Shown here: piece by piece, positions 1,079 to 32,862 of the stretch | Position numbering within the stretch: the stretch's first letter is position 1 | How the letters are laid out: the number at the start of each line of letters is the position of its first letter | Virus record (IMG/VR): IMGVR_UViG_2698536687_000005 | Length of the DNA stretch: 35,705 nucleotides | Source: a virus | Taxonomy: Duplodnaviria; Heunggongvirae; Uroviricota; Caudoviricetes | Reading direction: 5' to 3' (one strand) | The notes under the pieces: generated by a model | The model's database searches: none | What the model was told of the DNA's origin: nothing | Seen by the model: only the letters and a program-made list of their open reading frames with translations | Made by a program: the position numbers and the translations under genes

Positions 1079-1136
1079 AAATTTAACTGTATATACAACC
1101 AGTAATCAATGTGTGATTACTATGAAACATACATTG

Positions 1137-2813
1137 CTAAGCAACATGCAGTTCATCGTTGGCGGAAGTTGCTGCTTTGCGCTCTTGCTCAATCGCCAGT
1201 GACTCTCTATATTCTTTCGCTTCCGCAAACATTGTCCATTGTGCGTTGATGTTCATATCTTCAATAACAGACTTAATTTCTTTAATATTTACGTTGAAAA
1301 ACTCTTTTCGTGAGTTAATTTTATTGACCTGTTTTTCGTTGAAGACTTTATGCAGATGATTTTCTAATGATGGTGCATCATCACTATAAATCATCGCATG
1401 AACATCGAACGAAAAAGGAACACTAGCATCACCGAGTTCACGAACACGATCAAGTGGTTCAAGGCGGCGTGTCATTCCAATTTTATATACATCTTCGCCA
1501 AATGAGCCAATATTACTAATTATATAAACGTGGCCTGATCTAGTTTGTTGAGCCATAGAAATAGCTCGTTGGTTTTTAGCTTCAGCTTCTTCATATTTTA
1601 ACTGTAGTTCAGCTATTTTTTGCTCTAAAGCTAAGCGTTGTTCTTCATTTGCAAGCATAAGCTCTTTTGTTGCTTTATTTATAGCTTGCTGAATAGCTTT
1701 CTCTTCTTTTTCAGCTTCTTTTATCGCTTTTTCATACTCCCTACGAGCTCTTTCCTCTTCACGAAGTTGTTCTTTAATCCTTCTTTGCTCTTCTTTTTCT
1801 TCGAGCATAATTTCATTAACTGCAACTCCCCATTTTAGCTCGTTGAGTCGAGCTTGAAGATAGATGTCACTTATTTTTGCGGACCTAAAGGCAGAACCAT
1901 TGTAATTTACAAGTTGAAACGCATCTTTTATCTCTTGGGAAAGTTTTCCAAAATTGTTGTGTTTGACTTTTGATAAAATACTGTCAACTCTTCCATTGAA
2001 GGCATCTAAAACAAAGTTGATAGCAGTATTACGCCTGTTTTGTTCAACATAATCACACGAAGCAGCTTTATTAGTTTTTATTAATGATTTTGTTAACTCC
2101 CTGGCTTTTTGTAATTCCTTACCTGCATCTGTAAACTCATAATTTTCTGCCAATTCATCGAGAACGCTACGGTTAGGGATGATCCATTCATCACCATAAC
2201 CTTCAATTTTATTTTTCATTGATTTGGCAACTGCTTCATATTTTTCTGCAAACTCTTTAGCTTCATATGCTGAACCAGCAATCTCTTTTGCTCTTTCTTC
2301 TGCATCGGAAATAATTTTCACTGCATTGTCATTAGCATTTGAGATCAGCTCATTTGCTTTACTATTGGCATTATCAAGACGTTCTTTAGCTTTCAGGCGT
2401 GCATCGCGAGCGTCTTTAGTAATTGCTATAGCTTCGCTATTAGCGTTGCTTATTTTTATCTGAGCTTGATAATTTGCTTCGTTTACTGTCTTAGCAGCCT
2501 TTATTTGGGCTTCTTCTATTTTTTGCCTGGCTATTGAGTCTGCATTTTTTATCTTATTCTCTGCTTCCATCACTGCGCTGTGCAATTCTACGTATTGCCA
2601 TAATGGCGCAGCTCGTCCTTCAAGCTCTGATAGATCTCGTACAGTCTGTGCTAATTCTTCTTGATTTTCTTTCAGTTGGTTGGAAAGGGCTATGTTGTTA
2701 TCTGTCAAGGTATTTATAGCCGCTTTATGTTTTTTGCTTTGCTTAAATAATATTACAGCTAGAATGGGGGTGAGAAATGCTAATAAGAATATAACGATGG
2801 AAAATGAATTCAT
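1137..2813 (-). CDS. Membrane-anchored coiled-coil protein with DUF4041-like region and C-terminal T5orf172/MUG113 (GIY-YIG-like) domain; candidate defence/abortive-infection cargo
   Basis: 558-aa ORF. N-terminal hydrophobic helix (SIVIFLLAFLTPILAVILF), about 300 aa of K/E/A-rich heptad-like sequence, C-terminal 'HVYIISNIGSFGEDVYKIGMTRRLEPLDRVRELG...FSFDVHAMI...LENHLHKVF' matching the T5orf172 signature. AT-rich relative to backbone. AAGGA RBS 8 nt upstream. Confidence 0.75.
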   Translation of the reverse strand: MNSFSIVIFLLAFLTPILAVILFKQSKKHKAAINTLTDNNIALSNQLKENQEELAQTVRDLSELEGRAAPLWQYVELHSAVMEAENKIKNADSIARQKIEEAQIKAAKTVNEANYQAQIKISNANSEAIAITKDARDARLKAKERLDNANSKANELISNANDNAVKIISDAEERAKEIAGSAYEAKEFAEKYEAVAKSMKNKIEGYGDEWIIPNRSVLDELAENYEFTDAGKELQKARELTKSLIKTNKAASCDYVEQNRRNTAINFVLDAFNGRVDSILSKVKHNNFGKLSQEIKDAFQLVNYNGSAFRSAKISDIYLQARLNELKWGVAVNEIMLEEKEEQRRIKEQLREEERARREYEKAIKEAEKEEKAIQQAINKATKELMLANEEQRLALEQKIAELQLKYEEAEAKNQRAISMAQQTRSGHVYIISNIGSFGEDVYKIGMTRRLEPLDRVRELGDASVPFSFDVHAMIYSDDAPSLENHLHKVFNEKQVNKINSRKEFFNVNIKEIKSVIEDMNINAQWTMFAEAKEYRESLAIEQERKAATSANDELHVA

Positions 2814-2833
2814 TTTTAAATCCTTTTACTATA

Positions 2834-3430
2834 TTAATTTGAAACTATTGTACTTCTTATACAAGCAACTACTTCAATATCAGAAAATGCACATTCAAAG
2901 CTATTCTCTGTACTTGTAATTTTAATCATACCTTTTGGAAGCTTTGTGATTTTTCGAATGGAATAGGTTCCGTCGATGTTGATTAACCAGTGCCCATCAA
3001 GTACTTCAGAAAATTTTTGATCACAAATGTATGTGACGAGCCCATCCTGAATAACAATTGGTGATGAAAGATTTGCAGGAAGAAATGATGAATCGAAGAC
3101 ATATGAACCATCTTCAATCATTTTGCCTGCGGTAAGGCGAAACTTGGCAAGCTCTTCTGTAGCTGCTGTCAGCGAGCTTTGCTTAAGGCCTTGCCCGGTG
3201 GTTAACCATTTCAGTGAGGTTCCTGTTTCAAGAGCACATTGGATTATCCAGTCTGCAGGAAACGTATCCCGCAAATACCTGTTCGCCAGAGTGCTTTTTG
3301 ATACTTCCAAGTGATCAGCTAAAGCCTGTCGTGTCGTAAAGCCATAAGCTTCGACTAATCGCTCAATCGCAGCCTTACCACCTTTATTGGGATTTATTTT
3401 GATCTCATTTGGGTACTTTGATGTTGACAT
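2834..3430 (-). CDS. cI: Immunity repressor, phage 186 CI-like (N-terminal HTH, no S24 autoprotease motif seen)
   Basis: 198-aa ORF; N-terminal HTH-like 'FTTRQALADHLEVSKSTLANRY'; no G-x-S-M/Lys dyad; positioned between int-side cargo and apl, opposite orientation to apl. Confidence 0.75.
   Translation of the reverse strand: MSTSKYPNEIKINPNKGGKAAIERLVEAYGFTTRQALADHLEVSKSTLANRYLRDTFPADWIIQCALETGTSLKWLTTGQGLKQSSLTAATEELAKFRLTAGKMIEDGSYVFDSSFLPANLSSPIVIQDGLVTYICDQKFSEVLDGHWLINIDGTYSIRKITKLPKGMIKITSTENSFECAFSDIEVVACIRSTIVSN
3406..3418. repeat. 13-bp direct repeat CATTTGGGTACTT, copy 1 (inside cI N-terminal codons)
   Basis: Exact copy of the motif at 3465-3477; a degenerate third copy CATTTTGGGATAC lies at 3751-3763. 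Confidence 0.5.
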
Positions 3431-5330: not shown

Positions 5331-6184
5331 GCACCATCTTGAAATGGGCGGGAAATAAAACCGCCGTAATGTCCGAACTGAAAAAACATCTTCCTGCTGG
5401 TCCGCGACTAGTTGAACCTTTCGCGGGTTCCTGTGCTGTGATGATGGAGACGGATTATCCCTGCTATCTGGTTGCGGATATTAATCCTGATTTAATCAAC
5501 CTCTATAAAAAGGTTGCCGCTGATTGTGAATCGTTTATATCTCGCGCCAAAGTTTTATTTGAGATCGCAAACAGGGAGGTGGCTTATTACAACATAAGGC
5601 AGGAGTTTAATTACTCAACTGAAATTACTGATTTCATGAAAGCGGTATATTTCCTGTATCTCAATCGTCACGGTTACCGTGGGTTATGTCGCTATAACAA
5701 GAGCGGGCATTTCAACATTCCCTACGGTAATTATAAAAATCCGTATTTCCCTGAAAAAGAAATTCGCGCTTTTGCAGAAAAAGCCCAGCGAGCAACGTTT
5801 ATCTGCGCCAGCTTTGATGAAACGCTGGCGATGTTGAAGGCGGGGGATGTGGTGTATTGCGATCCGCCTTATGACGGTACGTTTTCCGGCTATCACGCTG
5901 ACGGCTTTACTGAAGATGACCAGTATCACCTGGCATCCGTTCTTGAACATCGGTCATCAGAAGGACATCCGGTCATTGTTTCTAACAGTGACACATCCCT
6001 GATCCGTTCGCTGTATCGCAATTTTACTCACCACTATATCAAGGTAAAACGCAGCATCGGCGTAGCAGCTGGTGAGAGTAAATCAGCAACAGAAATCATT
6101 GCTGTTTCCGGGCCGCGCTGCTGGGTGGGATTTGATTATTCGCGTGGCGTGGATAGTTCTGCCGTGTACGGAGTACGTGCATGA
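5327..6184 (+). CDS. dam: DNA adenine methyltransferase, Dam family (orphan, phage-encoded)
   Basis: 285-aa product from ATG at 5327 with GGAGG RBS; Dam-like N-terminus 'KWAGNK' and catalytic 'DPPY' motif ('[10 protein letters not shown]'). Confidence 0.8.
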
Positions 6185-8595
6185 GCCATGCCGATATGAG
6201 CAACTGCTGCGGCTTTAACGAGGCTGCCGCATCGTTCTCATGGAACAGCCCGAAAAAGGCCATTAACCCTTATCTGGACCCGGCGGAAGTTGCGCCGGTT
6301 TCTGCGCTTTCAAACCTGATCACTCTGTACGCTGCCGATAACGAGCAGGAACAACTGCGCCGCGAGGCACTGAGTGATCAGGTCTGGGAGCGTTATTTCT
6401 TTAATGAATCCCGTGATCCTGTCCAACGCGAAATAGAGCAGGATAAGCTCATTAGCCGGGCAAAGTTGGCGCATGAGCAGCAGCGTTTTAACCCGGACAT
6501 GGTCATTCTGGCAGACGTCAGCGCCCAGCCCTCCCATATCAGCAAGCCGCTGATGCAACGTATTGAATACTTCAGCAGCCTGGGCAGGCCAAAGGCTTAT
6601 TCCCGCTATTTACGTGAGACGATTAAGCCATGTCTGGAACGACTGGAGCATGTACGCGACAGCCAGCTATCTGCATCTTTTCGTTTTATGGCAAGCCATG
6701 TAGGGCTGGACGGCCTGCTGATTCTGCCTGAAATGAGTCAGGATCAGGTGAAACGCCTGTCTACCCTTGTCGCTGCGCATATGAGCATGTGCCTTGATGC
6801 AGCTTGTGGTGATTTGTATGCCACCGATGACGTTAAGCCAGAAGAAATCCGCAAGACATGGGAAAAGGTGGCAGCGGAAACCCTGCGTCTGGATGTCATC
6901 CCGCCTGCGTTTGAGCAACTCCGTCGGAAAAGAAACCGCCGTAAACCCGTGCCCTATGAACTCATTCCGGGTTCGCTGGCGCGTATGTTGTGCGCCGACT
7001 GGTGGTACCGGAAATTATGGAAAATGCGTTGCGAATGGCGGGAAGAGCAGTTGCGTGCTGTCTGCCTGGTCAGCAAAAAAGCATCTCCCTATGTCAGCTA
7101 TGAAGCCGTGATGCATAAACGTGAGCAGCGCCGCAAGTCACTGGAGTTTTTCCGTTCTCATGAACTGGTGAACGAAGAGGGCGACACGCTGGATATGGAA
7201 GACGTGGTAAACGCCAGCAGCAGCAACCCGGCGCACCGCCGCAATGAGATGATGGCCTGTGTTAAAGGTCTGGAGCTTATCGCGGAAATGCGCGGTGACT
7301 GCGCCGTTTTCTACACCATTACCTGTCCGTCACGTTTCCATTCCACGCTCAATAACGGCAGACCAAACCCAACCTGGACAAATGCGACGGTAAGACAAAG
7401 CAGCGATTATCTGGTCGGCATGTTTGCTGCATTTCGTAAGGCGATGCACAAAGCCGGGTTGCGCTGGTATGGCGTGCGGGTGGCTGAGCCGCATCATGAC
7501 GGTACAGTTCACTGGCACCTGTTGTGTTTCATGCGCAAAAAAGACCGCCGCGCCATTACTGCATTGTTGCGTAAGTTTGCCATCCGTGAAGACCGCGAGG
7601 AACTGGGTAATAACACTGGTCCACGCTTTAAATCTGAGCTGATAAACCCGCGCAAAGGAACGCCGACAAGCTACATCGCGAAATACATCAGTAAGAACAT
7701 TGACGGGCGTGGTCTGGCTGGCGAGATCAGCAAGGAAACGGGTAAATCCCTGCGTGATAACGCTGAATACGTTAATGCCTGGGCGTCTCTGCATCGTGTT
7801 CAGCAATTCCGCTTCTTTGGTATTCCGGGACGTCAGGCTTACCGTGAACTTCGCTTGCTGGCTGGTCAGGCGGCAAGGCAACAGGGTGACAAAAAAGCAG
7901 GTGCGCCGGTACTGGATAACCCGCGTCTTGATGCCATTCTGGCTGCTGCTGATGCTGGTTGTTTTGCCACCTACATCATGAAGCAGGGCGGCGTACTGGT
8001 TCCCCGCAAATATCACCTCATCAGAACCGCTTATGAAATCAACGAAGAGCCAACCGCCTATGGCGATCACGGTATTCGTATTTATGGCATCTGGTCACCC
8101 ATTGCAGAGGGCAAGATCTGCACTCATGCAGTGAAGTGGAAAATGGTTCGTAAGGCCGTTGACGTTCAGGAGGCGGCAGCCGACCAGGGCGCTTGCGCCC
8201 CTTGGACTCGTGGCAATAACTGTCCCCTTGCTGAAAATTTGAACCAACATGAGAAAGATGAATCAGCAGATGGGGATACCAGAACGGACATTACCTGCAT
8301 GGATGACAAGGAATTGCACGATTACCTGCACAGTATGAGCAAAAAAGAGCGCCGGGAACTGGCAGCAAGATTGCGCCTGGTTAAACCGAAACGGCGTAAA
8401 GACTACAAACAGCGAATTACAGAGTATCAGCGTCAGCAGCTCGTCTATGAACTGAAGTCCAGAGGATTTGATGGCAACGAGAAAGAGGTCGATTTGCTCC
8501 TTTGCGGTGGCAGTATTCCGTCAGGAGCAGGCCTGCGTATCTTCTATCGGAACCAGCGTTTGCAGGAAGATGATAAGTGGCGGAACCTGTATTAA
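6181..8595 (+). CDS. A: Replication initiation endonuclease, P2 gpA family (rolling-circle)
   Basis: 804-aa ORF; P2 A-like; Y-x-x-K rolling-circle motif '[12 protein letters not shown]'; start overlaps dam stop (ATGA). Confidence 0.85.
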
Positions 8596-8687
8596 TCACA
8601 CGGGTTAACAATTCGTGCTCTTAATAATACCAGGCATATCAGGCTGATGAACGTAAAAAAACGTTTTACATCAGTAAGATTATTATA

Positions 8688-8707
8688 TACTGTAAATATA
8701 AACAGTG
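8688..8707 (+). promoter_or_regulatory. Consensus LexA (SOS) box TACTGTAAATATAAACAGTG
   Basis: CTGT-N8-ACAG with AT-rich spacer at 8690-8705, about 45 bp upstream of the small ORF starting at 8749. Confidence 0.6.
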
Positions 8708-8748
8708 GTTATATGTACAGTATTGCGTATGGTGTTATAGGAGGAAAG

Positions 8749-8937
8749 ATGCAGGACTATTTTTTGGAGTCTTTGAAGCTCCAGCGCATTGATTTTTTTC
8801 TTAAGCTTGTAGCGGCTAGTGAGTGTAGTGATGAAGAGAAGGGGCTAGCTCTGCAGTGGGTTTCTGAATTGACTGATGAGTTGATGGCGAAAATTCGAAG
8901 CCATGAATACAGTAGGTCGATGGATGTAATCAGTTGA
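8749..8937 (+). CDS. Small SOS-box-associated protein; candidate Tum-like antirepressor or other SOS-induced cargo
   Basis: 62-aa product from ATG at 8749 with AGGAGGA RBS at 8739-8745; AT-rich; downstream of LexA box and upstream of a terminator hairpin. Confidence 0.45.
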   Translation: MQDYFLESLKLQRIDFFLKLVAASECSDEEKGLALQWVSELTDELMAKIRSHEYSRSMDVIS

Positions 8938-8970
8938 GCTTGTTTCGTTAGGACTTGATAAGGGAACCGA

Positions 8971-8996
8971 AAAGGGGCATTAAGCCCCTTTCTCAT
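8971..8996 (+). terminator. Intrinsic terminator hairpin between the small ORF and the convergent lipoprotein gene
   Basis: Stem AAAGGGGC/GCCCCTTT (8971-8978, 8984-8991) with 5-nt loop, followed by T-rich TCTC. Confidence 0.5.
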
Positions 8997-9004
8997 AAGT
9001 TGAT

Positions 9005-9304
9005 TTAGTTGTTACCCAAAGAGCCGGCCATGGCTGCATATTTAATTTCTTCGCTGGGTATTTCAGGATGTAGTTGAATTTGCCTGATGATATAGCCAGG
9101 AACTTCTTCACTCCACAGTTTCGCCGCGTCCTTACAGACCTTATACGCGAAGTCTCTATTCTCAAAGGCATAGGATTTTCCGTATGCATATTGCTGACAG
9201 GCATGAACATAAGCTCCGAAGTCGCCGTCTTTATCTGGCAAAGCACATCCAGCTAAGGCTATGATGATTGCTACTAACGTAAAGGAGAAAGTTATACGTT
9301 TCAT
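9005..9304 (-). CDS. Small lipoprotein, unknown function (cargo)
   Basis: 99 aa; signal peptide with lipobox 'LAGC' (MKRITFSFTLVAIIIALAGC); AT-rich. Confidence 0.65.
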   Translation of the reverse strand: MKRITFSFTLVAIIIALAGCALPDKDGDFGAYVHACQQYAYGKSYAFENRDFAYKVCKDAAKLWSEEVPGYIIRQIQLHPEIPSEEIKYAAMAGSLGNN

Positions 9305-9360
9305 GGTCTCTTTCTAAGCGTTTAGCATTATTTAACTAAGGGGTATCTGCCGTGATTTGG

Positions 9361-9389
9361 TAGTCCCTGATATATATTCTCAGGGACTA
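9361..9389. promoter_or_regulatory. Inverted repeat TAGTCCCTG-N11-CAGGGACTA between the two lipoprotein genes
   Basis: 9-bp perfect arms around AT-rich spacer ATATATATTCT; candidate operator or terminator/promoter element. Confidence 0.4.
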
Positions 9390-9412
9390 TGCTGAAGTAG
9401 CTTTAATTTTGA

Positions 9413-10219
9413 TTATTTAGAAAGGTACTTATCTCTAAGTTGATTCAGTCTGTCAGCATCGCGTTCTGAAAACTCGGCGTCACCATAGATCGATTTCCCA
9501 TCTGCGTCTTCAAGGCCAATGACTGTGACGGTAAATATAGCATCAGCCGGAACTTTAAGTTTTCCCCAATCAGAGTATCTATTAGGGGCTAATTTCCAGT
9601 TGGCTTTCTCACCTGGTTCCAGACCTCCAGAAATTTTATAGTTGAAGACGTCAGAGAACCAAGGGACGCTTCTTCCTGGGCTGGCAATAACTCCTTTGAA
9701 GAATACTCTGGCAACCGCTTTGTCTGTTCCGTTTTCAACGCTAATATCCAGAATTGGCTGATCATTGCCGTAATCCTCTTTCTGGAAATAAAAACGGGAA
9801 CGTTCGACCTTGAAGGCTTTCATTTTTTCCGCAGCCTGTGTTGCAGAGGTTTGTTTGGCTTCCAGTTCTTTTATTTCTTGCAGAGCCTGTTCTTTCTCTC
9901 TCTTCTCACGCTCAAGGCGAATAGTTTGTGCGTAATTTATAACCTCATCACCAGTTTTACCTTCCAACGCTGACTTAATTTTTGTTTCGTAGACGTCCCC
10001 AGAAGACGTTCCAGCCTGCATTAGCTCTCTCATGTTGATTTGGCTAAAGGCAACGACTTTAACTGCATCATCAAACTGAGCTTTTTTATCTGCAGGTAAG
10101 GACTCTCTTACTTTTTGAATGGACTCTTTCATCGACTGATCGCTTGATGCATCGATCTTCGGTTTGTCACAAGCAGTAAGCAGCAGAGCAAAAGCAATTA
10201 CGCCAGTTAATTTCTTCAT
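9413..10219 (-). CDS. Lipoprotein with central coiled-coil and C-terminal domain of unknown function (cargo)
   Basis: 268 aa from ATG at 10219 (track ORF extends to 10291); signal peptide 'MKKLTGVIAFALLLTAC' with lipobox; charged coiled-coil segment 'EREKREKEQALQEIKELEAKQ'. Confidence 0.65.
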   Translation of the reverse strand: MKKLTGVIAFALLLTACDKPKIDASSDQSMKESIQKVRESLPADKKAQFDDAVKVVAFSQINMRELMQAGTSSGDVYETKIKSALEGKTGDEVINYAQTIRLEREKREKEQALQEIKELEAKQTSATQAAEKMKAFKVERSRFYFQKEDYGNDQPILDISVENGTDKAVARVFFKGVIASPGRSVPWFSDVFNYKISGGLEPGEKANWKLAPNRYSDWGKLKVPADAIFTVTVIGLEDADGKSIYGDAEFSERDADRLNQLRDKYLSK

Positions 10220-10247
10220 ATCCCTATCCCAATCGTAAAAAAACAAG

Positions 10248-10268
10248 GCTAATCCTAACAGGATTAGC
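10248..10268. promoter_or_regulatory. Palindrome GCTAATCC-N5-GGATTAGC upstream of the 268-aa lipoprotein gene
   Basis: 8-bp perfect arms, 29-51 bp upstream of start codon at 10219; candidate operator. Confidence 0.4.
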
Positions 10269-10740
10269 GGGCATGACAAACTCATAGCCATATAGGTGTG
10301 CTGTATAAATTAGCGGGATGAGAAAGCCTGCACAGACCCTCATGTTGAAACTTGATTTTAGCTCAAAAGAGCTGACACTAAATAACTGCGCGGAATAATG
10401 CTCCACTTTCGGTTAGCCCTTGGCCCTTGCTGGGTAAGGCGTGGGGCCGTTTTCTTCGCCTGATCCTGCTGTATCTGGCCTACAGTATGTTGTCCTTACG
10501 CGACATGCCACATGTCAGTAAACGGCAGGTGTAGCAGTATTAGACGCAGCTATTTAGTGTGTATTAAGCTGGCTCATATTTATGACTGGTTTCAAGGTTT
10601 GACCGATTTCATGTCATGCATGTCTATGCTGCATGAGTTCGCATGATCGTTTGAGGATCGGTTTGGCTAAGACATGCCAGAACTGGCGGGCTTTTGCTCA
10701 TGTCATGCAGGTGCATGAAAACTACTACATAAAGCGGGCA

Positions 10741-10759
10741 GGCGTGGCGGGGATACGAG
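10741..10759. other. Candidate cos site (P2/186-type cohesive end)
   Basis: GGCGTGGCGGGGATACGAG; first 13 nt match the 186 cohesive-end sequence as recalled (GGCGTGGCGGGGAAAGCAT); lies between gene A side and Q as expected. Confidence 0.45.
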
Positions 10760-10869
10760 CGCGCGCTCATGGTTGAATTAATGAAATTATGGTGTTAAAT
10801 AGGCTAGCTTTTTAAGTCGTGAATATTCAATTTTTCAACTCATTTTTTTCATAGGGAGAAGTAATTGAC

Positions 10870-11568
10870 ATGGTTATGTTAGTGGATGACTGTCCACGAT
10901 GTGGATCACAAAAAATAGCGTTTGATGTTAATGGGCTGAATTGCACTAGGGTTTACAATGCATTGGGCGGGGGTAAAACATACGAGTACGAGGTCTATTG
11001 TGTTTGCCGAGAGTGTCATAAAACGACAATGTTTCTTTGCAGACCTTTAACGAAAAATAAAACTTTAGATGGCTATAATTGGGAAAGTGGAATATTCGGC
11101 TTAAAGGAAGTTGCAGAGGTTGTTAGGCCTATATCACCAGCAGACTTAGCAGTAGAGGAGCCACCAGAGTTCTTACCTGAGCATATCAATAGTGCATATG
11201 AGGAAGGGGCGAAATGTTTGGCTATAGGTTGTTATAATGCAGCAGCAACCATGTTTAGGCTTTGCCTTGATTATGCCACAAAAGGACTTCTTCCTGATGG
11301 GGAGCAAGGGCCTGCGCAAAAAATAAGGAGAAGCCTAGGGTTAAGAATGGAGTGGTTATTTGATAATCATCTACTGCCTGAAGCTTTAAGGGAACTAGCT
11401 GAATGCGTTAAAGATGACGGAAATGATGGAGCGCATGAAGGTATTTTGGATAAAGCTGCTGCTGAGGATCTTGAAGATTTTACCTATCTTTTTTTAGAAC
11501 GGCTTTACACTGAACCTCAACGCCTTATCGAAGCCAAGACAAGGCGTGAACAAAGAAGAAACAAATAA
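10870..11568 (+). CDS. Zn-ribbon + DUF4145 (HEPN-like) protein; candidate single-gene defence/Abi cargo
   Basis: 232 aa; N-terminal 'CPRCGS ... CVCRECH' four-Cys arrangement; C-terminal 'YEEGAKCLAIGCYNAAATMFRLCLDYATK ... NDGAHEG' resembling DUF4145; AT-rich promoter-like upstream region; GGGAGAAG RBS. Confidence 0.6.
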   Translation: MVMLVDDCPRCGSQKIAFDVNGLNCTRVYNALGGGKTYEYEVYCVCRECHKTTMFLCRPLTKNKTLDGYNWESGIFGLKEVAEVVRPISPADLAVEEPPEFLPEHINSAYEEGAKCLAIGCYNAAATMFRLCLDYATKGLLPDGEQGPAQKIRRSLGLRMEWLFDNHLLPEALRELAECVKDDGNDGAHEGILDKAAAEDLEDFTYLFLERLYTEPQRLIEAKTRREQRRNK

Positions 11569-11576
11569 GTTCGGAA

Positions 11577-12611
11577 TTATTCTTCTGAAAGAATATAGGG
11601 CGTAAATTTAATCACTTCTTCGCCCAGCCAGTCGTTCAGCTCTTGTAGCCTTTTTTGCAAGGGCGTTAATTCATTACGTACAAATACGCGACTGGCTTTC
11701 TCCACATCCCCAAACCCCCCGACATTATTAGGCATTATCCCCATCATTTGCGGCGGCACGCGGTGTGCAGCCATCATGTCGTCACGGCTCACGTTTTTGA
11801 TATTCAGAAACTCATCCTTCGCTGCGACTTCTGACAACGGGATAATCTGAAGCCCGTCCTTTTTGCCGTTAGGCGAGTACATAAACAGATTGCGGAAGTT
11901 GCCAGGGCCTTTGGCGCTTTTCATCGCGTTGCGGAGGTTGTTCACGTCCTCCTGGTTCTGCGCAGCGTCGGTCATGTACATGATGAAGCCAGCATGACTG
12001 CCGTTAATGTAATACTTTCGACGGAACAGCGTGGCAGACTCATTGAGCAGGGCGGACGGAATGGCAGAAAGATAGCCGGGCAGGCCGTAGATCTCCTGGT
12101 TAATGTCCGGTTCCATCAGATGAAAAATGCTGCCTTTCGTGAACTGATACGGCTGGGTTGTCATACCGAATTGCAGAAACCAGTAGGTATCCAGGTCTAA
12201 CCCGCGTCGGGTGTATTTTGCCAGAGCAGGCTCAAGGGCGATAACTTCACCGAAGCGGTTCGTGCGTTTCTCCAGGTAGGCGTTACCAAATACCAGATAG
12301 TCCTGCACAAAACGTGAAAAAGCCTGCTGGCTGAGCAGCGGGTGGGGGATGTAGGTACTGGTCAGAATGTTGCATTTCACCGCAATTGGTGAACTGTGAT
12401 GCACGGCGGCGCGGAAGGTGCGCGCCAGTCCGTCAAAGCTTACTGGCGGCTCATACCAGCGATCTGTCTGTACGCATTCCACATAGTCCAGTAGTTCGCG
12501 GCGGTCCAGAACAGGAACGGGATCACCGAAGCTGAATGCTTCGGCTGTAGTTTGACTTTTATGCTGGATCTGGTTCGTCGACGCAGCGCGGTTCTTCTTA
12601 CTCTTTCCCAT
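11577..12611 (-). CDS. Q: Portal protein (P2 gpQ)
   Basis: 344 aa from ATG at 12611 (track ORF begins one codon earlier at TTG); P2 Q-like size and position; start overlaps P stop. Confidence 0.88.
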   Translation of the reverse strand: MGKSKKNRAASTNQIQHKSQTTAEAFSFGDPVPVLDRRELLDYVECVQTDRWYEPPVSFDGLARTFRAAVHHSSPIAVKCNILTSTYIPHPLLSQQAFSRFVQDYLVFGNAYLEKRTNRFGEVIALEPALAKYTRRGLDLDTYWFLQFGMTTQPYQFTKGSIFHLMEPDINQEIYGLPGYLSAIPSALLNESATLFRRKYYINGSHAGFIMYMTDAAQNQEDVNNLRNAMKSAKGPGNFRNLFMYSPNGKKDGLQIIPLSEVAAKDEFLNIKNVSRDDMMAAHRVPPQMMGIMPNNVGGFGDVEKASRVFVRNELTPLQKRLQELNDWLGEEVIKFTPYILSEE

Positions 12612-14377
12612 CAAAAAATCTCCACAATATTACTGGTATTGGCGGACTCGCCCTGCAGTGGTTCGTTAAACAGTGCGTGCATTGTTGCCCAGGCCAGATC
12701 GGCGTGGCTGGCTTCTTCGCTGCGGCTGGCTTCATAGGTCGGGCGGTTGCCACTGGCGGTGGTTGCGCGACGGATTGCCATGAATGACTGCGCAATGTCG
12801 GTGTGCCCGGCGTCAAACTCCAGACGGCGGTGGCTGATAATGTCGTAGGCCTTGAGTACCAGGGCGTTTTTAACGTTGGGGTTGTAGACAAACTCCCGGA
12901 CGGCAGGAAAGAACGCTTTCACGTTCTCGTAAACCCCGTGACCAACGCCGGTTGAGTCGATACCGATATAAGTCACGTTGTACTGTTCGGTAAGTTTTTT
13001 GATGGCGTCAGCCTGGGCGCGGAAGTCCATCCCGCGCCACTGGTGACGCTCAAGAATGCGGAACTTACCACCCGGCACGGCTGGCGGTGCCACCACCACG
13101 CATCCAGCGCTGTCGCCGTTTTGCGTACCTTTTGCCGGGTCATAACCGATCCACACTTCGCGCCAGCCAAACGGGCGCAGCGCCAGTGCATGAAAGTCGG
13201 TCCAGACTTCCCAACTGTCCACCATGCACGCCTGCAGCTCGCTGAGCGGAAACACGGACGCGAGATCGTCCACAAACTCGCACATCAGCAGGTTCTGGTA
13301 TTCGTCTGGGCTGTACTCCATGCGTAGCTGGTCGAGGTCGAACAGGTTACAGCCGCCGCGCACCGCATCTTCCACGGTGACTATCTGGCGGTATTGCCCG
13401 TCTGCGCACAGCAGGCCGGGGGCCAGATTGCTGTGGGACAGGTCGATGTCCACCTTATCGGCTTTGTTGCGCCCACGGTTGAACAGCGCACCGGACCAGA
13501 ACGGATAAGCACTGTGTGTCAGACTGGATGGCGTGGAAAAATAGGTTTGTCGCCATTTTTTGTGAATAGCCATACCGGAAGCCACTTTGCGCAGCTCCTG
13601 GAATTTCGGTATCCAGAAATATTCATCCAGATACAGGTTGCCGTGGTAACTCTGGGCCGTGCGGGCATTGGTGCCGAGGAAGTAAAGCGTGGCCCCGTTA
13701 GGAAGCACCATCGGATCGCCTTTCAGCTCCACCTCCACTTCTTTGGCAAAGTCGATGATGTACTGTTTAAAGACGTGGGCCTGAGCCTTGCTGGCAGAAA
13801 GGAAAATCTGGTTACGCCCGGTCAGCAGGGCGTCAATCAGGGCTTCACGGGCAAAGTAAAAGGTCGCGCCGATCTGGCGTGACTTCAGCAGGTTGCGGAT
13901 GCGGTTGGTTTTTCCGGCTTCCCACCAGTGGCGCTGGTAGTTGAACATAGAGGAATGGAAGATTTCTTCCAGTTTCTCAATCTGTTCATCGGTGAAAACA
14001 TTCTTTTCCGGCTGACGACGTGGGCCTTTGTTGCGGTTGGCAACGTTAGGGTTTAAGTCGGCTTCGTTGCCGCCATTGTTAAACTTGCCGATCCGCGCGT
14101 GGCGCTCAGACTGGCGTGCCAGCAGGTCAATTTCTTTGAAATCTTTCCCTTCTTTGTGCTCCTTCATAATGAGCTGGCAGTAGCGTGCGGCGGTGGTGAG
14201 CTGCATCTGATCCAGCGGCCCATAGTCACCCCACTTGTCGCGTTTTTTCCAGCTGTGAACGGTTGCAACTTTCTCGCCCAGCATTTCAGCAATGCGGGCG
14301 ACGCGGTATCCCTGAAAGTACAGCAGCATGGCCTGCCGACGGGGATCGAGATCTGCGGGTGTCAGTGTGGTGTTCAT
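12611..14377 (-). CDS. P: Terminase large (ATPase) subunit (P2 gpP)
   Basis: 588 aa; P2 gpP size (about 590 aa) and position. Confidence 0.88.
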   Translation of the reverse strand: MNTTLTPADLDPRRQAMLLYFQGYRVARIAEMLGEKVATVHSWKKRDKWGDYGPLDQMQLTTAARYCQLIMKEHKEGKDFKEIDLLARQSERHARIGKFNNGGNEADLNPNVANRNKGPRRQPEKNVFTDEQIEKLEEIFHSSMFNYQRHWWEAGKTNRIRNLLKSRQIGATFYFAREALIDALLTGRNQIFLSASKAQAHVFKQYIIDFAKEVEVELKGDPMVLPNGATLYFLGTNARTAQSYHGNLYLDEYFWIPKFQELRKVASGMAIHKKWRQTYFSTPSSLTHSAYPFWSGALFNRGRNKADKVDIDLSHSNLAPGLLCADGQYRQIVTVEDAVRGGCNLFDLDQLRMEYSPDEYQNLLMCEFVDDLASVFPLSELQACMVDSWEVWTDFHALALRPFGWREVWIGYDPAKGTQNGDSAGCVVVAPPAVPGGKFRILERHQWRGMDFRAQADAIKKLTEQYNVTYIGIDSTGVGHGVYENVKAFFPAVREFVYNPNVKNALVLKAYDIISHRRLEFDAGHTDIAQSFMAIRRATTASGNRPTYEASRSEEASHADLAWATMHALFNEPLQGESANTSNIVEIF

Positions 14378-22823: not shown

Positions 22824-24550
22824 GCACAAAATTTTATACCCTGCTGACGGATATTGGCGCGGCGAAACTTGCCAGCGCCGCCGCACTCGGTGTGCCGTTA
22901 AAAATTACCCATATGGCGGTAGGCGATGGCGGCGGAACATTACCAACGCCGGATGCAAAGCAGACTGCACTGGTAAATGAGAAACGCCGGGCTGCGCTGA
23001 ATATGCTCTATATCGACCCGCAAAACAGCAGCCAGATTATTGCTGAACAGGTGATCCCTGAAAACGAGGGTGGTTGGTGGATACGTGAAGTGGGCCTGTT
23101 TGATGAATCCGGGGCATTAATTGCCGTGGGCAACTGCCCGGAAAGCTATAAGCCGCAACTGGCTGAAGGCAGCGGGCGCACCCAGACAGTGCGCATGGTG
23201 CTGATTACCAGCAGCACGGACAATATCACCCTGAAAATCGACCCTGCTGTCGTGCTGGCAACCCGTCATTATGTAGATCAACAAATAGAAATTCATGAGC
23301 AATCGCGCCGCCATCCTTCTGCGTCTTTGACAGAAAAGGGATTTGTACGTCTGTATAGCGGTGTGGAAAGCAATGATGAAACAGTCGCTGCAACGCCAAA
23401 AGCAGTGAAAATAGCGATGGATAATGCCAGCGCCAGACTGGCAAAAGACCGCAATGGTTCTGATATTCCCAATCCGGCACTGTTTGTTCAGAATCTGGGA
23501 TTGAAAACGACTGTTGATAAAGCTGCATCAGCGATTCAGCCAGGAGATTATGGAATTGGCCTGGCTTATCTGAAAACCATGGGAACCAAATCGCAATTTT
23601 TTGCTTATGGTACAGCTGTCGGCTATCCAGAAGTGCCAACACATGGTGCTGGTTTCCAGGCCTGTTACAACGACAATCGACGTGCACAGATTTATGTCGC
23701 TAATGATGGCAAGATGTACTGTCGATTCAGCATGTTATCGAAAATTGCCGATGATGAAACACCGTGGAATCAGGTGTTCACCAGTGCACATTATCCAGAA
23801 GCATCAGTGAGTGTTAAAGGAATGGTGCAACTGGGGAACGATGTAAACAGCGTGTCAGAAAATGTTGCGGCGACATTGAAAGCGGTAAAAATTGCGATGG
23901 ACAACGCCAGCGCGAGACTGGCAAAGGACCGCAATGGTGCTGATATTCCTGACCCGACTTTGTTTATTCAGAATTTGGGACTTAAACCGACGGTTGATAA
24001 GGCTGAAAGTGCTCTGCAACAGGGAGCATACGGAATTGGTGGTAAAAATAACTACGAAATGGGGGAGGTTTCACAGTTTCTTGCATATTCAGGTAATGCA
24101 GATGAAGTGCCATCGAATGGTGCAGGTTTTCAGGCTGCGTATAACAAGAACAGACGCGCGCAGATTTTCATCACCGGAGCAGGGGAAATGTATCACCGTT
24201 TCAGCGGCTCTGATACGGTTAAAGACAGTACAACGCTATGGCGCCGGGGTGTTTGTGAAGATGAATTTTCATTTGGCAGCAATTATCACCGAATAACTGG
24301 CGGTGTGCTGAAGCAGTTTTTTAACAGTTATTTTTCCGGGGAAACTGGTGTGGTGAATAAAAATTATCAGGTGAATTTTCCGACACCATTTGCCCGTCAG
24401 TGCTGGTACGTGATCCCTGTTTTCCGTTCGGCACACGGTGGGAGTGTTGAGGGGGTTGCCATTACAACTATTACTGCAACTGGTTTTACTCTGAGCATCA
24501 CCGGGGATAACGGTGGATGGAATATTGGGTTTATTGCGGAGGGGGTCTGA
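22820..24550 (+). CDS. H: Tail fibre protein (P2 gpH family) with internally duplicated C-terminal module
   Basis: 576 aa; N-terminus 'MSTKFYTLLTDIGAAKLASAAALG...' typical of P2 gpH; two tandem homologous segments of about 120 aa in the distal part. Confidence 0.88.
   Translation: MSTKFYTLLTDIGAAKLASAAALGVPLKITHMAVGDGGGTLPTPDAKQTALVNEKRRAALNMLYIDPQNSSQIIAEQVIPENEGGWWIREVGLFDESGALIAVGNCPESYKPQLAEGSGRTQTVRMVLITSSTDNITLKIDPAVVLATRHYVDQQIEIHEQSRRHPSASLTEKGFVRLYSGVESNDETVAATPKAVKIAMDNASARLAKDRNGSDIPNPALFVQNLGLKTTVDKAASAIQPGDYGIGLAYLKTMGTKSQFFAYGTAVGYPEVPTHGAGFQACYNDNRRAQIYVANDGKMYCRFSMLSKIADDETPWNQVFTSAHYPEASVSVKGMVQLGNDVNSVSENVAATLKAVKIAMDNASARLAKDRNGADIPDPTLFIQNLGLKPTVDKAESALQQGAYGIGGKNNYEMGEVSQFLAYSGNADEVPSNGAGFQAAYNKNRRAQIFITGAGEMYHRFSGSDTVKDSTTLWRRGVCEDEFSFGSNYHRITGGVLKQFFNSYFSGETGVVNKNYQVNFPTPFARQCWYVIPVFRSAHGGSVEGVAITTITATGFTLSITGDNGGWNIGFIAEGV
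23373..24205 (+). repeat. Tandem duplication inside gene H (two homologous ~350-bp units)
   Basis: Unit 1 about 23373-23730 ('NDETVAATPKAVKIAMDNASARLAKDRNGSDIP...GAGFQACYNDNRRAQIYV') and unit 2 about 23853-24205 ('SENVAATLKAVKIAMDNASARLAKDRNGADIP...GAGFQAAYNKNRRAQIFI'); divergent copies. Confidence 0.8.
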
Positions 24551-24984
24551 TGAGTTATTTTTACAGTCCATCAAGAAATGCATTTTATAACAGTGAACTG
24601 AAATCTGATTATTACGATGCTCTCGATGCGTGGCCGGATGACTGTATTGAGGTAAGTGATGCAGTCTATCAGGAGTTTTATCTTGGTTATCGGGAAGGGT
24701 ACAAAATGGTTGCAGGTACTGATAACCAGCCATCATGGGAAGAACGTCCACCATTGACCCATGAGGAACAGGTGGAACAGGCAGAAATGATGAAACAGAT
24801 GCGCATTAATGAGGCTAACAACCTGATTAATGAAAAACAATGGCCATCAAAATTACAGCTTGGCAGGCTGAACGAAATGGAGACAACCAGATTTAATGCG
24901 ATGCTGGATTATCTTGAGTTACTTGAAAATATTAATGTAAGTGATGCCCCGGATATAGTCTGGCCTTTATCACCAGAAGTCTGA
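24550..24984 (+). CDS. G: Tail fibre assembly chaperone (P2 gpG)
   Basis: 144 aa from ATG at 24550 overlapping H stop (ATGA); follows H. Confidence 0.78.
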   Translation: MSYFYSPSRNAFYNSELKSDYYDALDAWPDDCIEVSDAVYQEFYLGYREGYKMVAGTDNQPSWEERPPLTHEEQVEQAEMMKQMRINEANNLINEKQWPSKLQLGRLNEMETTRFNAMLDYLELLENINVSDAPDIVWPLSPEV

Positions 24985-24988
24985 ATAC

Positions 24989-25008
24989 ATCCCCGCGTCT
25001 GCGGGGAT
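24989..25008 (+). terminator. Hairpin after G (weak terminator)
   Basis: ATCCCCGC-GTCT-GCGGGGAT perfect 8-bp stem; no strong U-tract. Confidence 0.35.
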
Positions 25009-25023
25009 TGCTGTATCCGCCGT

Positions 25024-25041
25024 TGTGCCATTTTTCATACA
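25024..25041 (+). promoter_or_regulatory. Late-promoter activator dyad TGT-N12-ACA upstream of FI
   Basis: TGTGCCATTTTTCATACA; centre about 85 bp upstream of FI ATG (25117). Confidence 0.6.
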
Positions 25042-25116
25042 AACCACATAACGTGCATCCTGCTCGTTTCAACCAGAACATAGGTAGACCCCCTCTACTA
25101 CCGGAGAGACTGCCTT

Positions 25117-32263: not shown

Positions 32264-32331
32264 CTCTGCCGCCATTTTTTCACCATTGCTAAAAACAGTG
32301 ATTCTAAAAATCATTGTTTTCGAATAAGTGC

Positions 32332-32862
32332 CTAGCATCCGATAAGGTCGTTTGCTTCAAACTTTGGCAAATGATACTCATTTGCCAAATGTTCGTTATC
32401 TTTGTTATTTTTTAAATATTTGTATTTTAATGTATTTTTATCTTCATTGTATGATAATAAAGCTTCCCCGATAGGAACATCACGCCACCCTATTTGAATG
32501 CAAAGAAGGATAGTGACCTGCCCTTTATGGTTTAGCTTACCCGAGAATGTAAAGGTGCATTTCTCTTCATCAAGGCTTGTTGATGAACAGTTAGTGATAG
32601 TCCCTCCCAAATTGCCGACGACATCTGATGACTCAATTTTTATGCTTATTATATTCTCATTATGGTTGCGAATATCACCAACATTGTTCCAGTTTTTTGA
32701 GACTAGAAGCTCAATAATTCTTTTTTTCTTAAGGCGTTTTACTTCCTTTGCCTGTGGTGAGTATAAGAGGTATGCGGGTATGCCTGCTACAATCGTTGCT
32801 ACAATTGCCAGCACAGCTAATATAATGGTAACCATCTGAAGTCCTTGTTCTTCTGCCGCCAT
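32332..32862 (-). CDS. Membrane-anchored protein of unknown function (cargo between ogr and host junction)
   Basis: 176 aa; N-terminal TM helix (LQMVTIILAVLAIVATIVAGIPAYLLY); strongly AT-rich unlike flanking phage and host DNA. Confidence 0.6.
   Translation of the reverse strand: MAAEEQGLQMVTIILAVLAIVATIVAGIPAYLLYSPQAKEVKRLKKKRIIELLVSKNWNNVGDIRNHNENIISIKIESSDVVGNLGGTITNCSSTSLDEEKCTFTFSGKLNHKGQVTILLCIQIGWRDVPIGEALLSYNEDKNTLKYKYLKNNKDNEHLANEYHLPKFEANDLIGC

Follow-up and report, generated by a model that had tools for sequence, protein, structure and literature searches.

In the window, by which we mean the whole 35,705-nt stretch of DNA analysed here, a 62-aa ORF very probably encodes the Tum antirepressor of a Fels-2/DuoHS-like (P2/186-family) prophage, as part of an SOS-induced module that would inactivate a non-cleavable CI repressor. 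From sequence comparison and analogy with studied phages, SOS-dependent induction through an antirepressor is the best explanation because the CI of the window is of the 186 type, in which a domain search found PF07022 and PF16452 only and no S24 peptidase domain, as the sequence-only reading had described it. That reading had also placed an SOS box at 8688–8707 and, behind it, a ribosome-binding site and the ORF at 8749–8937, all of which were confirmed by direct reading of the sequence; the ORF starts with ATG at 8749 and its TGA ends at 8937. The features of the region are as follows.

1–1053 (− strand), int
1137–2813 (− strand), PD-Lambda-1 defence gene
2834–3430 (− strand), CI immunity repressor, 198 aa (PF07022 and PF16452), presumed target of the antirepressor
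between CI and gene A, CII, DUF5347, a DksA-like gene, and Dam methylase
6181–8595, replication gene A (PF05840)
8665–8670 (+ strand), −35-like hexamer TTTACA of the putative tum promoter, from direct reading and conserved in relatives
8688–8693 (+ strand), −10-like hexamer TACTGT, doubling as the left arm of LexA box 1, from the geometry of 186 p95 and the alignment of relatives
8688–8707 (+ strand), LexA box 1, strong, TACTGTAAATATAAACAGTG, from direct reading
8703–8722 (+ strand), LexA box 2, weaker, CAGTGGTTATATGTACAGTA
8739–8744 (+ strand), Shine-Dalgarno sequence AGGAGG, 4 nt 5′ of the ATG, from direct reading and kept in orthologs
8749–8937 (+ strand), tum (TumA-type), 62 aa, predicted two-helix hairpin, from phrog_698, hhalign, and DuoHS orthology
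8938–8940 (no strand), recombination breakpoint; at 8938 the homology to every DinI-carrying relative stops
after tum and before portal Q, cargo
8971–8991 (no strand), GC-rich hairpin AAAGGGGC-ATTAA-GCCCCTTT with an 8-bp stem, in the gap between tum and the convergent lipoprotein gene
11577–12614 (− strand), portal Q, followed by terminase

The window represents an E. coli prophage of the P2/186 family that is colinear with DuoHS, the P2-like prophage of E. coli HS, at 93–96% identity. Both prophages have the same insertion site, and the ybjL–ybjM–grxA flank is 98.8% identical. The colinearity is interrupted by four replaced segments (1117–3177, 8939–11602, 23410–25115, and 32321–32852).

The product of the 62-aa ORF matched phrog_698 from end to end (E = 1e-37); PHROG lists this family as of "unknown function". 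We compared the ORF with eight orthologs, one of which (E. coli HH194M) was identical to the window, while the other seven differed from it at dS values of 0.44–1.75. At these distances dN/dS was 0.04–0.07 (about 0.06), and therefore the ORF encodes a strongly constrained protein; by this sequence measure it is a real protein-coding gene under strong purifying selection. Over 8400–9420 the window and HH194M are 99.8% identical. The gene was present in 1,104 of 5,426 complete E. coli genomes (approximately 20%) with a DNA identity of 90–95%, and it was also found in Fels-2, SopEphi, and Klebsiella P2-like phages. The family comprises 484 clusters (90% identity) across Enterobacterales, none of which carries a useful name; databases label the gene "hypothetical protein", "levan regulatory domain protein", or, in PHROG, "unknown function". 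Some records annotate an extended 96-aa ORF (8647–8937). We rejected this version, whose start codon would lie 5′ of the −35 hexamer; every family member begins at the MxD motif that opens the 62-aa form, and PGAP, too, annotates 62 aa.

From an alignment of 27 sequences, AlphaFold2 predicted a two-helix hairpin (helices 2–23 and 28–61; pLDDT 86), in which the conserved Cys26 occupies the turn. A Foldseek search of this model against the PDB returned generic helical hairpins alone (best E = 0.78), and phmmer found no match to the ORF among PDB sequences. Pfam, NCBIfam, and PADLOC gave no meaningful match either. An exhaustive single-sequence search of 1.8 billion representatives retrieved small proteins of the same family only, with no fusion of Tum length among them, and many stand-alone database entries of 63–78 aa are named "Tum protein".

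The sequence-only reading had called the LexA box perfect. This held for its CTGT and ACAG arms but not for the full 20-mer, which agreed with the LexA consensus at 17 of 20 positions. The minimal motif CTGT-N8-ACAG has no significance by itself, with one match in the window against 0.43 expected and at least one match in 36 of 100 shuffled sequences. The box 1 20-mer, by contrast, was unique in the window at up to three mismatches to the consensus, and 0 of 100 shuffles contained a match. Scored with an approximate LexA position weight matrix built from 28 E. coli LexA sites, box 1 reached 23.4 bits, a score that beats 22 of the 28 known sites and was equalled in 0 of 200 shuffles. Box 1 is unchanged in DuoHS of E. 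coli HS, Fels-2, RE2010, and ST340phi10.2.

Box 2 scored 15.2 bits with the same matrix, inside the range of the known sites. Its 16-mer core is GTG-N10-CAG and shares 1 bp with the core of box 1; the two 16-mers, CTGTAAATATAAACAG and GTGGTTATATGTACAG, are of the CTG-N10-CAG type and have G8705 in common. In Fels-2-like relatives the GTG...ACAG ends of box 2 are kept in all, while the central bases drift. The 42 bp at 8683–8724 matched more than 1,100 PLSDB plasmids, mostly small and mobilizable, with approximately 90% identity, and in the plasmids inspected it immediately precedes an operon for a colicin-like tRNase bacteriocin, an immunity protein, and a lysis protein. The two operators read as follows.

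42-bp operator of the window: TATACTGTAAATATAAACAGTGGTTATATGTACAGTATT
42-bp operator of a cloacin-type plasmid: TATACTGTATATAAAACCAGTGGTTATATGTACAGTATT

Judged by their sequence, boxes 1 and 2 constitute a colicin-type double SOS operator, and we infer that LexA binds both directly. At colicin-type operators two bound LexA dimers give very tight repression, and their cooperative binding makes induction tight and delayed (PMC2994835). Neither box 2 nor the separate DinI-like gene of the relatives described below figured in the sequence-only reading. An early MAFFT reading that equated the single box of 186 with box 2 was dropped; promoter geometry puts the 186 box at box 1.

A generic promoter and terminator scan called neither element in 8500–9400, the tum promoter being under its threshold, and the assignment of this promoter therefore rests on comparison with the annotated p95 of 186. 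The layout of the putative tum promoter matches the −35 and −10 elements of p95, and the −10 element of 186 (7045–7050 of the 186 record) falls where the LexA site begins. TT(T/C)ACA, a spacer of 17–18 nt, and TACTGT are common to Fels-2, SopEphi, RE2010, ST512phi13.6, ESSI2-like phages, and 186. As for the terminator that had been proposed after the ORF, an 8-bp hairpin is present at 8971–8991, but its + strand T-tract is poor and it fails the terminator scan. The whole 70-nt stretch folds at −20.6 kcal/mol (z = −2.0). The hairpin may be a bidirectional terminator, perhaps mainly or also for the convergent gene at 9005–9304 (− strand). A search of 8400–9400 with Rfam detected no RNA family.

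Alignment to 186 Tum and to DinI had been suggested as a check, and the length given there for 186 Tum (146 aa) agrees with the 186 record. Pairwise BLASTP revealed no similarity of the ORF to 186 Tum or PSP3 TumA. In contrast, profile comparison by hhalign between the window family (27-member alignment) and homologs of the N-terminal part of Tum (13-member alignment) gave a probability of 96.7% (E = 4.6e-10), with residues 1–46 aligned ungapped on 1–46. Residues 1–70 of 186 Tum also matched phrog_698 in register (6e-6; 6–44 on 6–44), and phrog_8554 and phrog_1993 were matched by both the ORF and 186 Tum. E7, R13, R19–L20, A22, C26, D30, E32, A34–L35, and E40 are common to the ORF family and Tum. 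DinI (PF06183/NF007893) had no match in the 62-aa ORF, while residues 72–142 of 186 Tum matched DinI (1.5e-11) and PDB entry 1ghh. These comparisons indicate that the ORF is a homolog of the N-terminal half of 186 Tum, that is, of the antirepressor half and not the DinI half, and a remote one because pairwise BLAST was negative. The suggestion of a minimal or novel antirepressor thus survives in its first part, the protein corresponding to the TumA half only, but not in its second.

The ORF starts the variable region between gene A and portal Q, and the order of gene A followed by tum is also seen in 186, PSP3, Fels-2, SopEphi, DuoHS, and ESSI-2. ESSI-2-like phages, which belong to other Peduoviridae genera, carry homologs with 44–49% identity directly after gene A, with a strong single LexA box approximately 30–40 nt 5′ of the start codon and no DinI gene. 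The box has been kept upstream of these distant homologs although the promoters have diverged, and therefore the SOS box travels with the gene family.

Experimental evidence comes from DuoHS, whose tum (ECHS_RS04495) encodes a protein identical to that of the window at 61 of 62 residues. In the HS chromosome ECHS_RS04495 is a 62-aa gene just upstream of a DinI-like gene, and it is the locus tag given for the deleted tum in the supplement of the Phollow study (PMC12055606, Nat Microbiol 2025). The DuoHS tum promoter is 96% identical to that of the window, with an identical box 1 and two central base differences in box 2. In-frame deletion of tum abolished mitomycin-triggered lysis and virion foci of DuoHS, lexA(Ind-) likewise abolished both, and the SOS reporter response of the tum mutant was normal (PMC12055606). 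Loss of induction without the gene or with uncleavable LexA, which had been predicted for the window ORF, was thus seen with an ortholog that is 98% identical, and by analogy tum and cleavable LexA would be needed in the window prophage too. Together with the hhalign result and the Fels-2 and SopEphi orthologs, this supports the earlier proposal of an SOS-controlled antirepressor at the genomic position of 186 tum. The DuoHS experiments establish that tum is necessary for induction; the direct target lies beyond them.

Work on related phages points in the same direction. A passage in PMC3121763, citing Bunny et al. 2002, describes a stop codon that divides tum into two parts in Fels-2 and in PSP3, and the antirepressor activity in PSP3 resides in the upstream gene (PMC3121763). 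The same paper implicates SOS and Tum in the lethality of Fels-2 in lexA null strains (PMC3121763), and STM2726–STM2727–STM2728 of Fels-2 is among the operons responsive to the mutagen MX (PMC2225428). For the induction of SopEphi in the inflamed gut, a passage in a review credits SOS-enhanced expression of Tum, citing Diard 2017 (PMC9827884).

The CI of the window is 33% identical to 186 CI and 55% to DuoHS CI. An alternative that we consider improbable is that Tum is needed for induction but has no direct action on CI, its target being Apl/Cox-like, CII, or RecA/LexA, as for DinI-like proteins. The DuoHS data give the necessity of tum alone, and a legend in that study describes Tum as acting "by inhibiting pro-lysogenic regulators" (PMC12055606). 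In most relatives, moreover, the gene is linked in an operon to a DinI-like RecA modulator, and Tum is nearly invariant (84–97% conserved) across phages with very different CI proteins (38–50% identical to that of the window). This alternative is opposed by the homology to the N-terminal half of 186 Tum, since the 186 record annotates full-length Tum as inhibiting CI DNA binding and a passage in PMC3121763, citing Shearwin 1998, states that 186 Tum binds its repressor and prevents operator binding. The normal SOS reporter in the tum mutant argues that the protein is dispensable for SOS signalling, and the ORF has no DinI similarity.

The N-terminal domain of CI also co-varies with the type of Tum, which likewise speaks against a target other than CI. 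Its HTH domain is 72–84% identical among phages that have the Tum type of the window and 45–47% identical for 186 and PSP3, while the linker and C-terminal domain are 23–32% identical in all phages compared. This domain split would resolve the mismatch between a conserved Tum and a variable CI, a mismatch that would fit binding to CI only if the target is the N-terminal domain. The comparison is therefore consistent with Tum targeting the DNA-binding domain of CI and with possible cross-induction between such prophages; the co-variation is a correlation, which could simply reflect shared ancestry. By analogy with 186, we infer direct binding of Tum to CI, probably at the conserved N-terminal domain, and the CI-binding mechanism is here carried over across a remote homology because BLAST sees no similarity to 186 Tum or PSP3 TumA.

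DuoHS, Fels-2, and most E. coli copies have a DinI-like partner gene. In the window, cargo begins two bases after the stop codon of tum, in the place of the DinI-like tumB, and no DinI-like (tblastn), 186-type Tum, or orf97 sequence was found anywhere in the window. From this comparison, the DinI-like partner was lost from the window lineage, with cargo substituted by recombination. Among the 1,104 E. coli genomes carrying the gene, just 20 have the DinI-less junction, and this rarity, together with the loss of the DinI gene two bases past the stop codon, would be expected if the antirepressor without its partner were a crippled remnant, insufficient or mistimed, in a prophage that is poorly or not SOS-inducible. 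The 186 record likewise annotates internal starts that give DinI-like truncated forms of Tum, described as modulating induction. We regard this second alternative as very improbable: the ORF, the ribosome-binding site, and both boxes are intact and do not differ from those of E. coli HH194M, ESSI-2-like phages naturally combine a LexA-boxed homolog with no DinI gene, the upstream gene of PSP3 alone is reported to carry the activity, and stand-alone entries named Tum are many.

That the gene is SOS-induced cargo (a moron, for instance a toxin, a defence factor, or a division inhibitor) that plays no part in induction, as the sequence-only reading had allowed, would suit its position at the edge of the variable region and its uninformative database labels, but it is rejected as barely conceivable by its place in a conserved backbone (more than 1,100 genomes are homologous through gene A and the ORF, with the homology ending at the stop codon), its homology to the N-terminal domain of Tum, the absence of a PADLOC match, and, most directly, the phenotype of the DuoHS tum deletion, which effectively refutes it. 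All three alternatives are much less likely than an antirepressor acting on CI.

For the antirepressor acting on CI, the following sequence of events is proposed. In the lysogen, LexA dimers would occupy the two overlapping operators, which in a weak sigma-70 promoter (TTTACA-17-TACTGT) cover the −10 hexamer and the point where transcription starts, and tum would be silenced. After DNA damage, active RecA would promote self-cleavage of LexA, and the promoter would fire. The helical-hairpin protein would then build up and inactivate the 186-type CI, which is presumed incapable of autocleavage, most likely by stoichiometric binding that blocks operator binding as with 186 Tum, and the early lytic promoter would be released. 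In the window prophage the module would consist of the antirepressor alone, its usual co-transcribed DinI-like gene having been replaced. A wider set of predictions, which we put forward tentatively and consider unlikely to hold jointly, is that Tum of the Fels-2/DuoHS type acts on the N-terminal and not the C-terminal domain of CI, that one allele induces in trans P2-like prophages with CI proteins of 38–55% identity, that the double operator and the loss of DinI give a higher or later SOS threshold, and that a separate LexA-boxed int promoter makes excision SOS-dependent.

The SOS-controlled Tum induction system was already known, and the window shows a variation on an established mechanism. 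The main value of this analysis lies in annotation: an SOS induction switch present in about one-fifth of complete E. coli genomes is labelled hypothetical, and the same mislabelled switch occurs in P2-like prophages of Salmonella and Klebsiella, including the virulence-converting SopEphi. With phrog_698 connected to both 186 Tum and the genetics of DuoHS, the inducibility of such prophages becomes predictable from sequence. Particular to the window prophage are the replacement of the DinI-like partner by cargo and the doubled operator, and this natural variant is handy material on the roles of the partner and of the second box in the timing of induction. If the N-terminal domain of CI is indeed the target, a single antirepressor allele could induce many P2-like prophages in trans.

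Among known systems, DuoHS is similar in having tum after gene A and the same chromosomal integration site, and differs in that its DinI-like gene lies 10 nt 3′ of tum, where the window has cargo. STM2728 of Fels-2 (95% identical) and orf10 of SopEphi (90% identical) are orthologs behind the same double operator; in contrast to the window, a DinI-like gene comes next, which the Fels-2 record likens to PSP3 TumB, and the records call the ORF just "hypothetical" or "unknown". PSP3 shares the split layout, with a small upstream antirepressor gene behind a LexA box; its record gives a tumA of 60 aa, described as "similar to 5' end 186 tum; UV induction of prophage", together with tumB, which is DinI-like. 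However, TumA of PSP3 belongs to another subfamily (phrog_1993), tumB is retained, and the LexA box is single (28.9 bits).

Phage 186 has the same non-cleavable class of CI, a Tum that acts as a LexA-controlled antirepressor from the same genome position and is homologous to the window ORF over approximately 46 N-terminal residues, and a p95 promoter whose −10 likewise lies inside the LexA box. On the other hand, 186 Tum is a protein with a C-terminal DinI-like fusion and approximately 18% identity to the window protein, which is the N-terminal module alone; the LexA box of 186 is single and stronger (27.5 bits), and orf97, which the window lacks, lies downstream of its tum.

GfoA, GftA, and FsoA of Gifsy and Fels-1 phages (Lemire et al. 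2011) are also small LexA-controlled antirepressors of non-cleavable repressors, are co-transcribed with a dinI homolog as most Tum relatives are, and are able to affect other prophages in trans (PMC3121763); they differ in belonging to lambdoid phages with other repressor families and in the reversed gene order, with dinI first. The double operator itself resembles that of the colicin-like tRNase operons on ColRNAI-type plasmids, with 38 of 42 bp the same, an identical box 2 20-mer, and the same 1-bp overlap of the boxes. The −35 region of the colicin/cloacin operator is unrelated to that of the window, and it drives a bacteriocin, whereas the operator of the window would drive a prophage antirepressor.

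The 62-aa tum ORF (8749-8937, plus strand), which encodes the SOS-induced antirepressor, has been annotated by several phage records and gene callers in an N-terminally extended form of 96 aa (window 8647-8937; L013:6146-6436 in another compared record), in some records under the name "levan regulatory domain protein". The extended form was rejected since its start would precede the promoter and the family alignment gives it no support. In UniRef, a 62-aa family member is called "Levan regulatory protein". In PHROGs, phrog_698 and the Tum-related sister families 8554, 1993, and 37919 are all listed as "unknown function".

The tum region appears to be interrupted in L007 (K. pneumoniae p1878-9k, NZ_CP072999.1), a 9-kb "plasmid" record that carries gene A and looks like a prophage fragment. 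At its locus 2501-2548, homology to the tum promoter ends after approximately 48 nt, directly past LexA box 1; beyond it lies ltrA, which encodes the reverse transcriptase/maturase of a group II intron. From this break and the adjacent ltrA, a group II intron appears to have inserted into the tum operator or the tum gene.

Downstream of tum, the cargo at 8939-11602 substitutes for the DinI-like gene and is made up of three ORFs:
9005-9304, minus strand, putative lipoprotein of 99 aa (phrog_7666)
9413-10291, minus strand, DUF6694 lipoprotein (phrog_7468)
10870-11568, plus strand, DUF4145 protein (phrog_1305; weak similarity to PD-T7-4, E 1e-6)
The outer portion of the cargo differs from that of HH194M, the closest E. 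coli genome.

When CI (window 2834-3430, minus strand) was compared with the CI proteins of relatives (alignment A6), the N-terminal HTH domain was well conserved among Fels-2-like phages, at 72-84% identity; the linker and C-terminal oligomerisation domain showed 23-32%, and diverge from one another as much as they do from 186 CI. Fels-2-like phages have mosaic CI repressors.

Two features lie between cI and int:
1137-2813, minus strand, PD-Lambda-1 anti-phage defence protein of 558 aa (PADLOC E 5e-120; Pfam DUF4041, T5orf172/MUG113)
1085-1104 (within 1054-1111), minus strand, LexA-like box upstream of int, AACTGTATATACAACCAGTA (LexA matrix 25.3 bits)
A gap of 20 nt separates the PD-Lambda-1 ORF from cI, which lies upstream of it, so the two probably share a transcript in the lysogen. 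The segment holding it (1117-3177) is among the blocks that differ between the window and DuoHS, a related prophage of E. coli HS.

The LexA-like box, the second strong one in the window, scores higher than box 1 of the tum operator. It is situated between the int start and the stop codon of PD-Lambda-1. Read on the strand of int, the box takes up the spacer that separates a -35-like TTGATT from a -10-like TTAAAT. A hairpin (AGCCCTC/GAGGGCT) followed by T6 comes after the box and abuts the int ATG, and the Shine-Dalgarno of int falls within this hairpin. The box is kept in DuoHS (L018:2835-2854, 23.8 bits) and Klebsiella phage 4LV2017 (L016:1184-1203), in both of which other genes set cI and int apart. 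Among the compared relatives, RE2010 and ST512phi13.6 lack the box, and int abuts cI in both. The box, the promoter-like hexamers, the hairpin, and retention where genes separate cI from int together suggest an SOS-inducible int promoter, which the hairpin would insulate from cI-operon read-through.

The tum operator also resembles a known system. Its 8683-8724 segment is identical at 38 of 42 positions to L005:1497-1538, from a cloacin/colicin-type plasmid, where a double SOS operator precedes an operon for a colicin-like tRNase bacteriocin; the box 2 20-mer is identical in the two. Matches to the operator occur in >1,100 plasmids, and on those inspected the operon behind it contains a cloacin-family immunity gene. 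The likeness could be a coincidence among many variants. Being closer than LexA binding alone needs, it hints that P2-like phages and Col-type plasmids have exchanged the operator or share it by ancestry.
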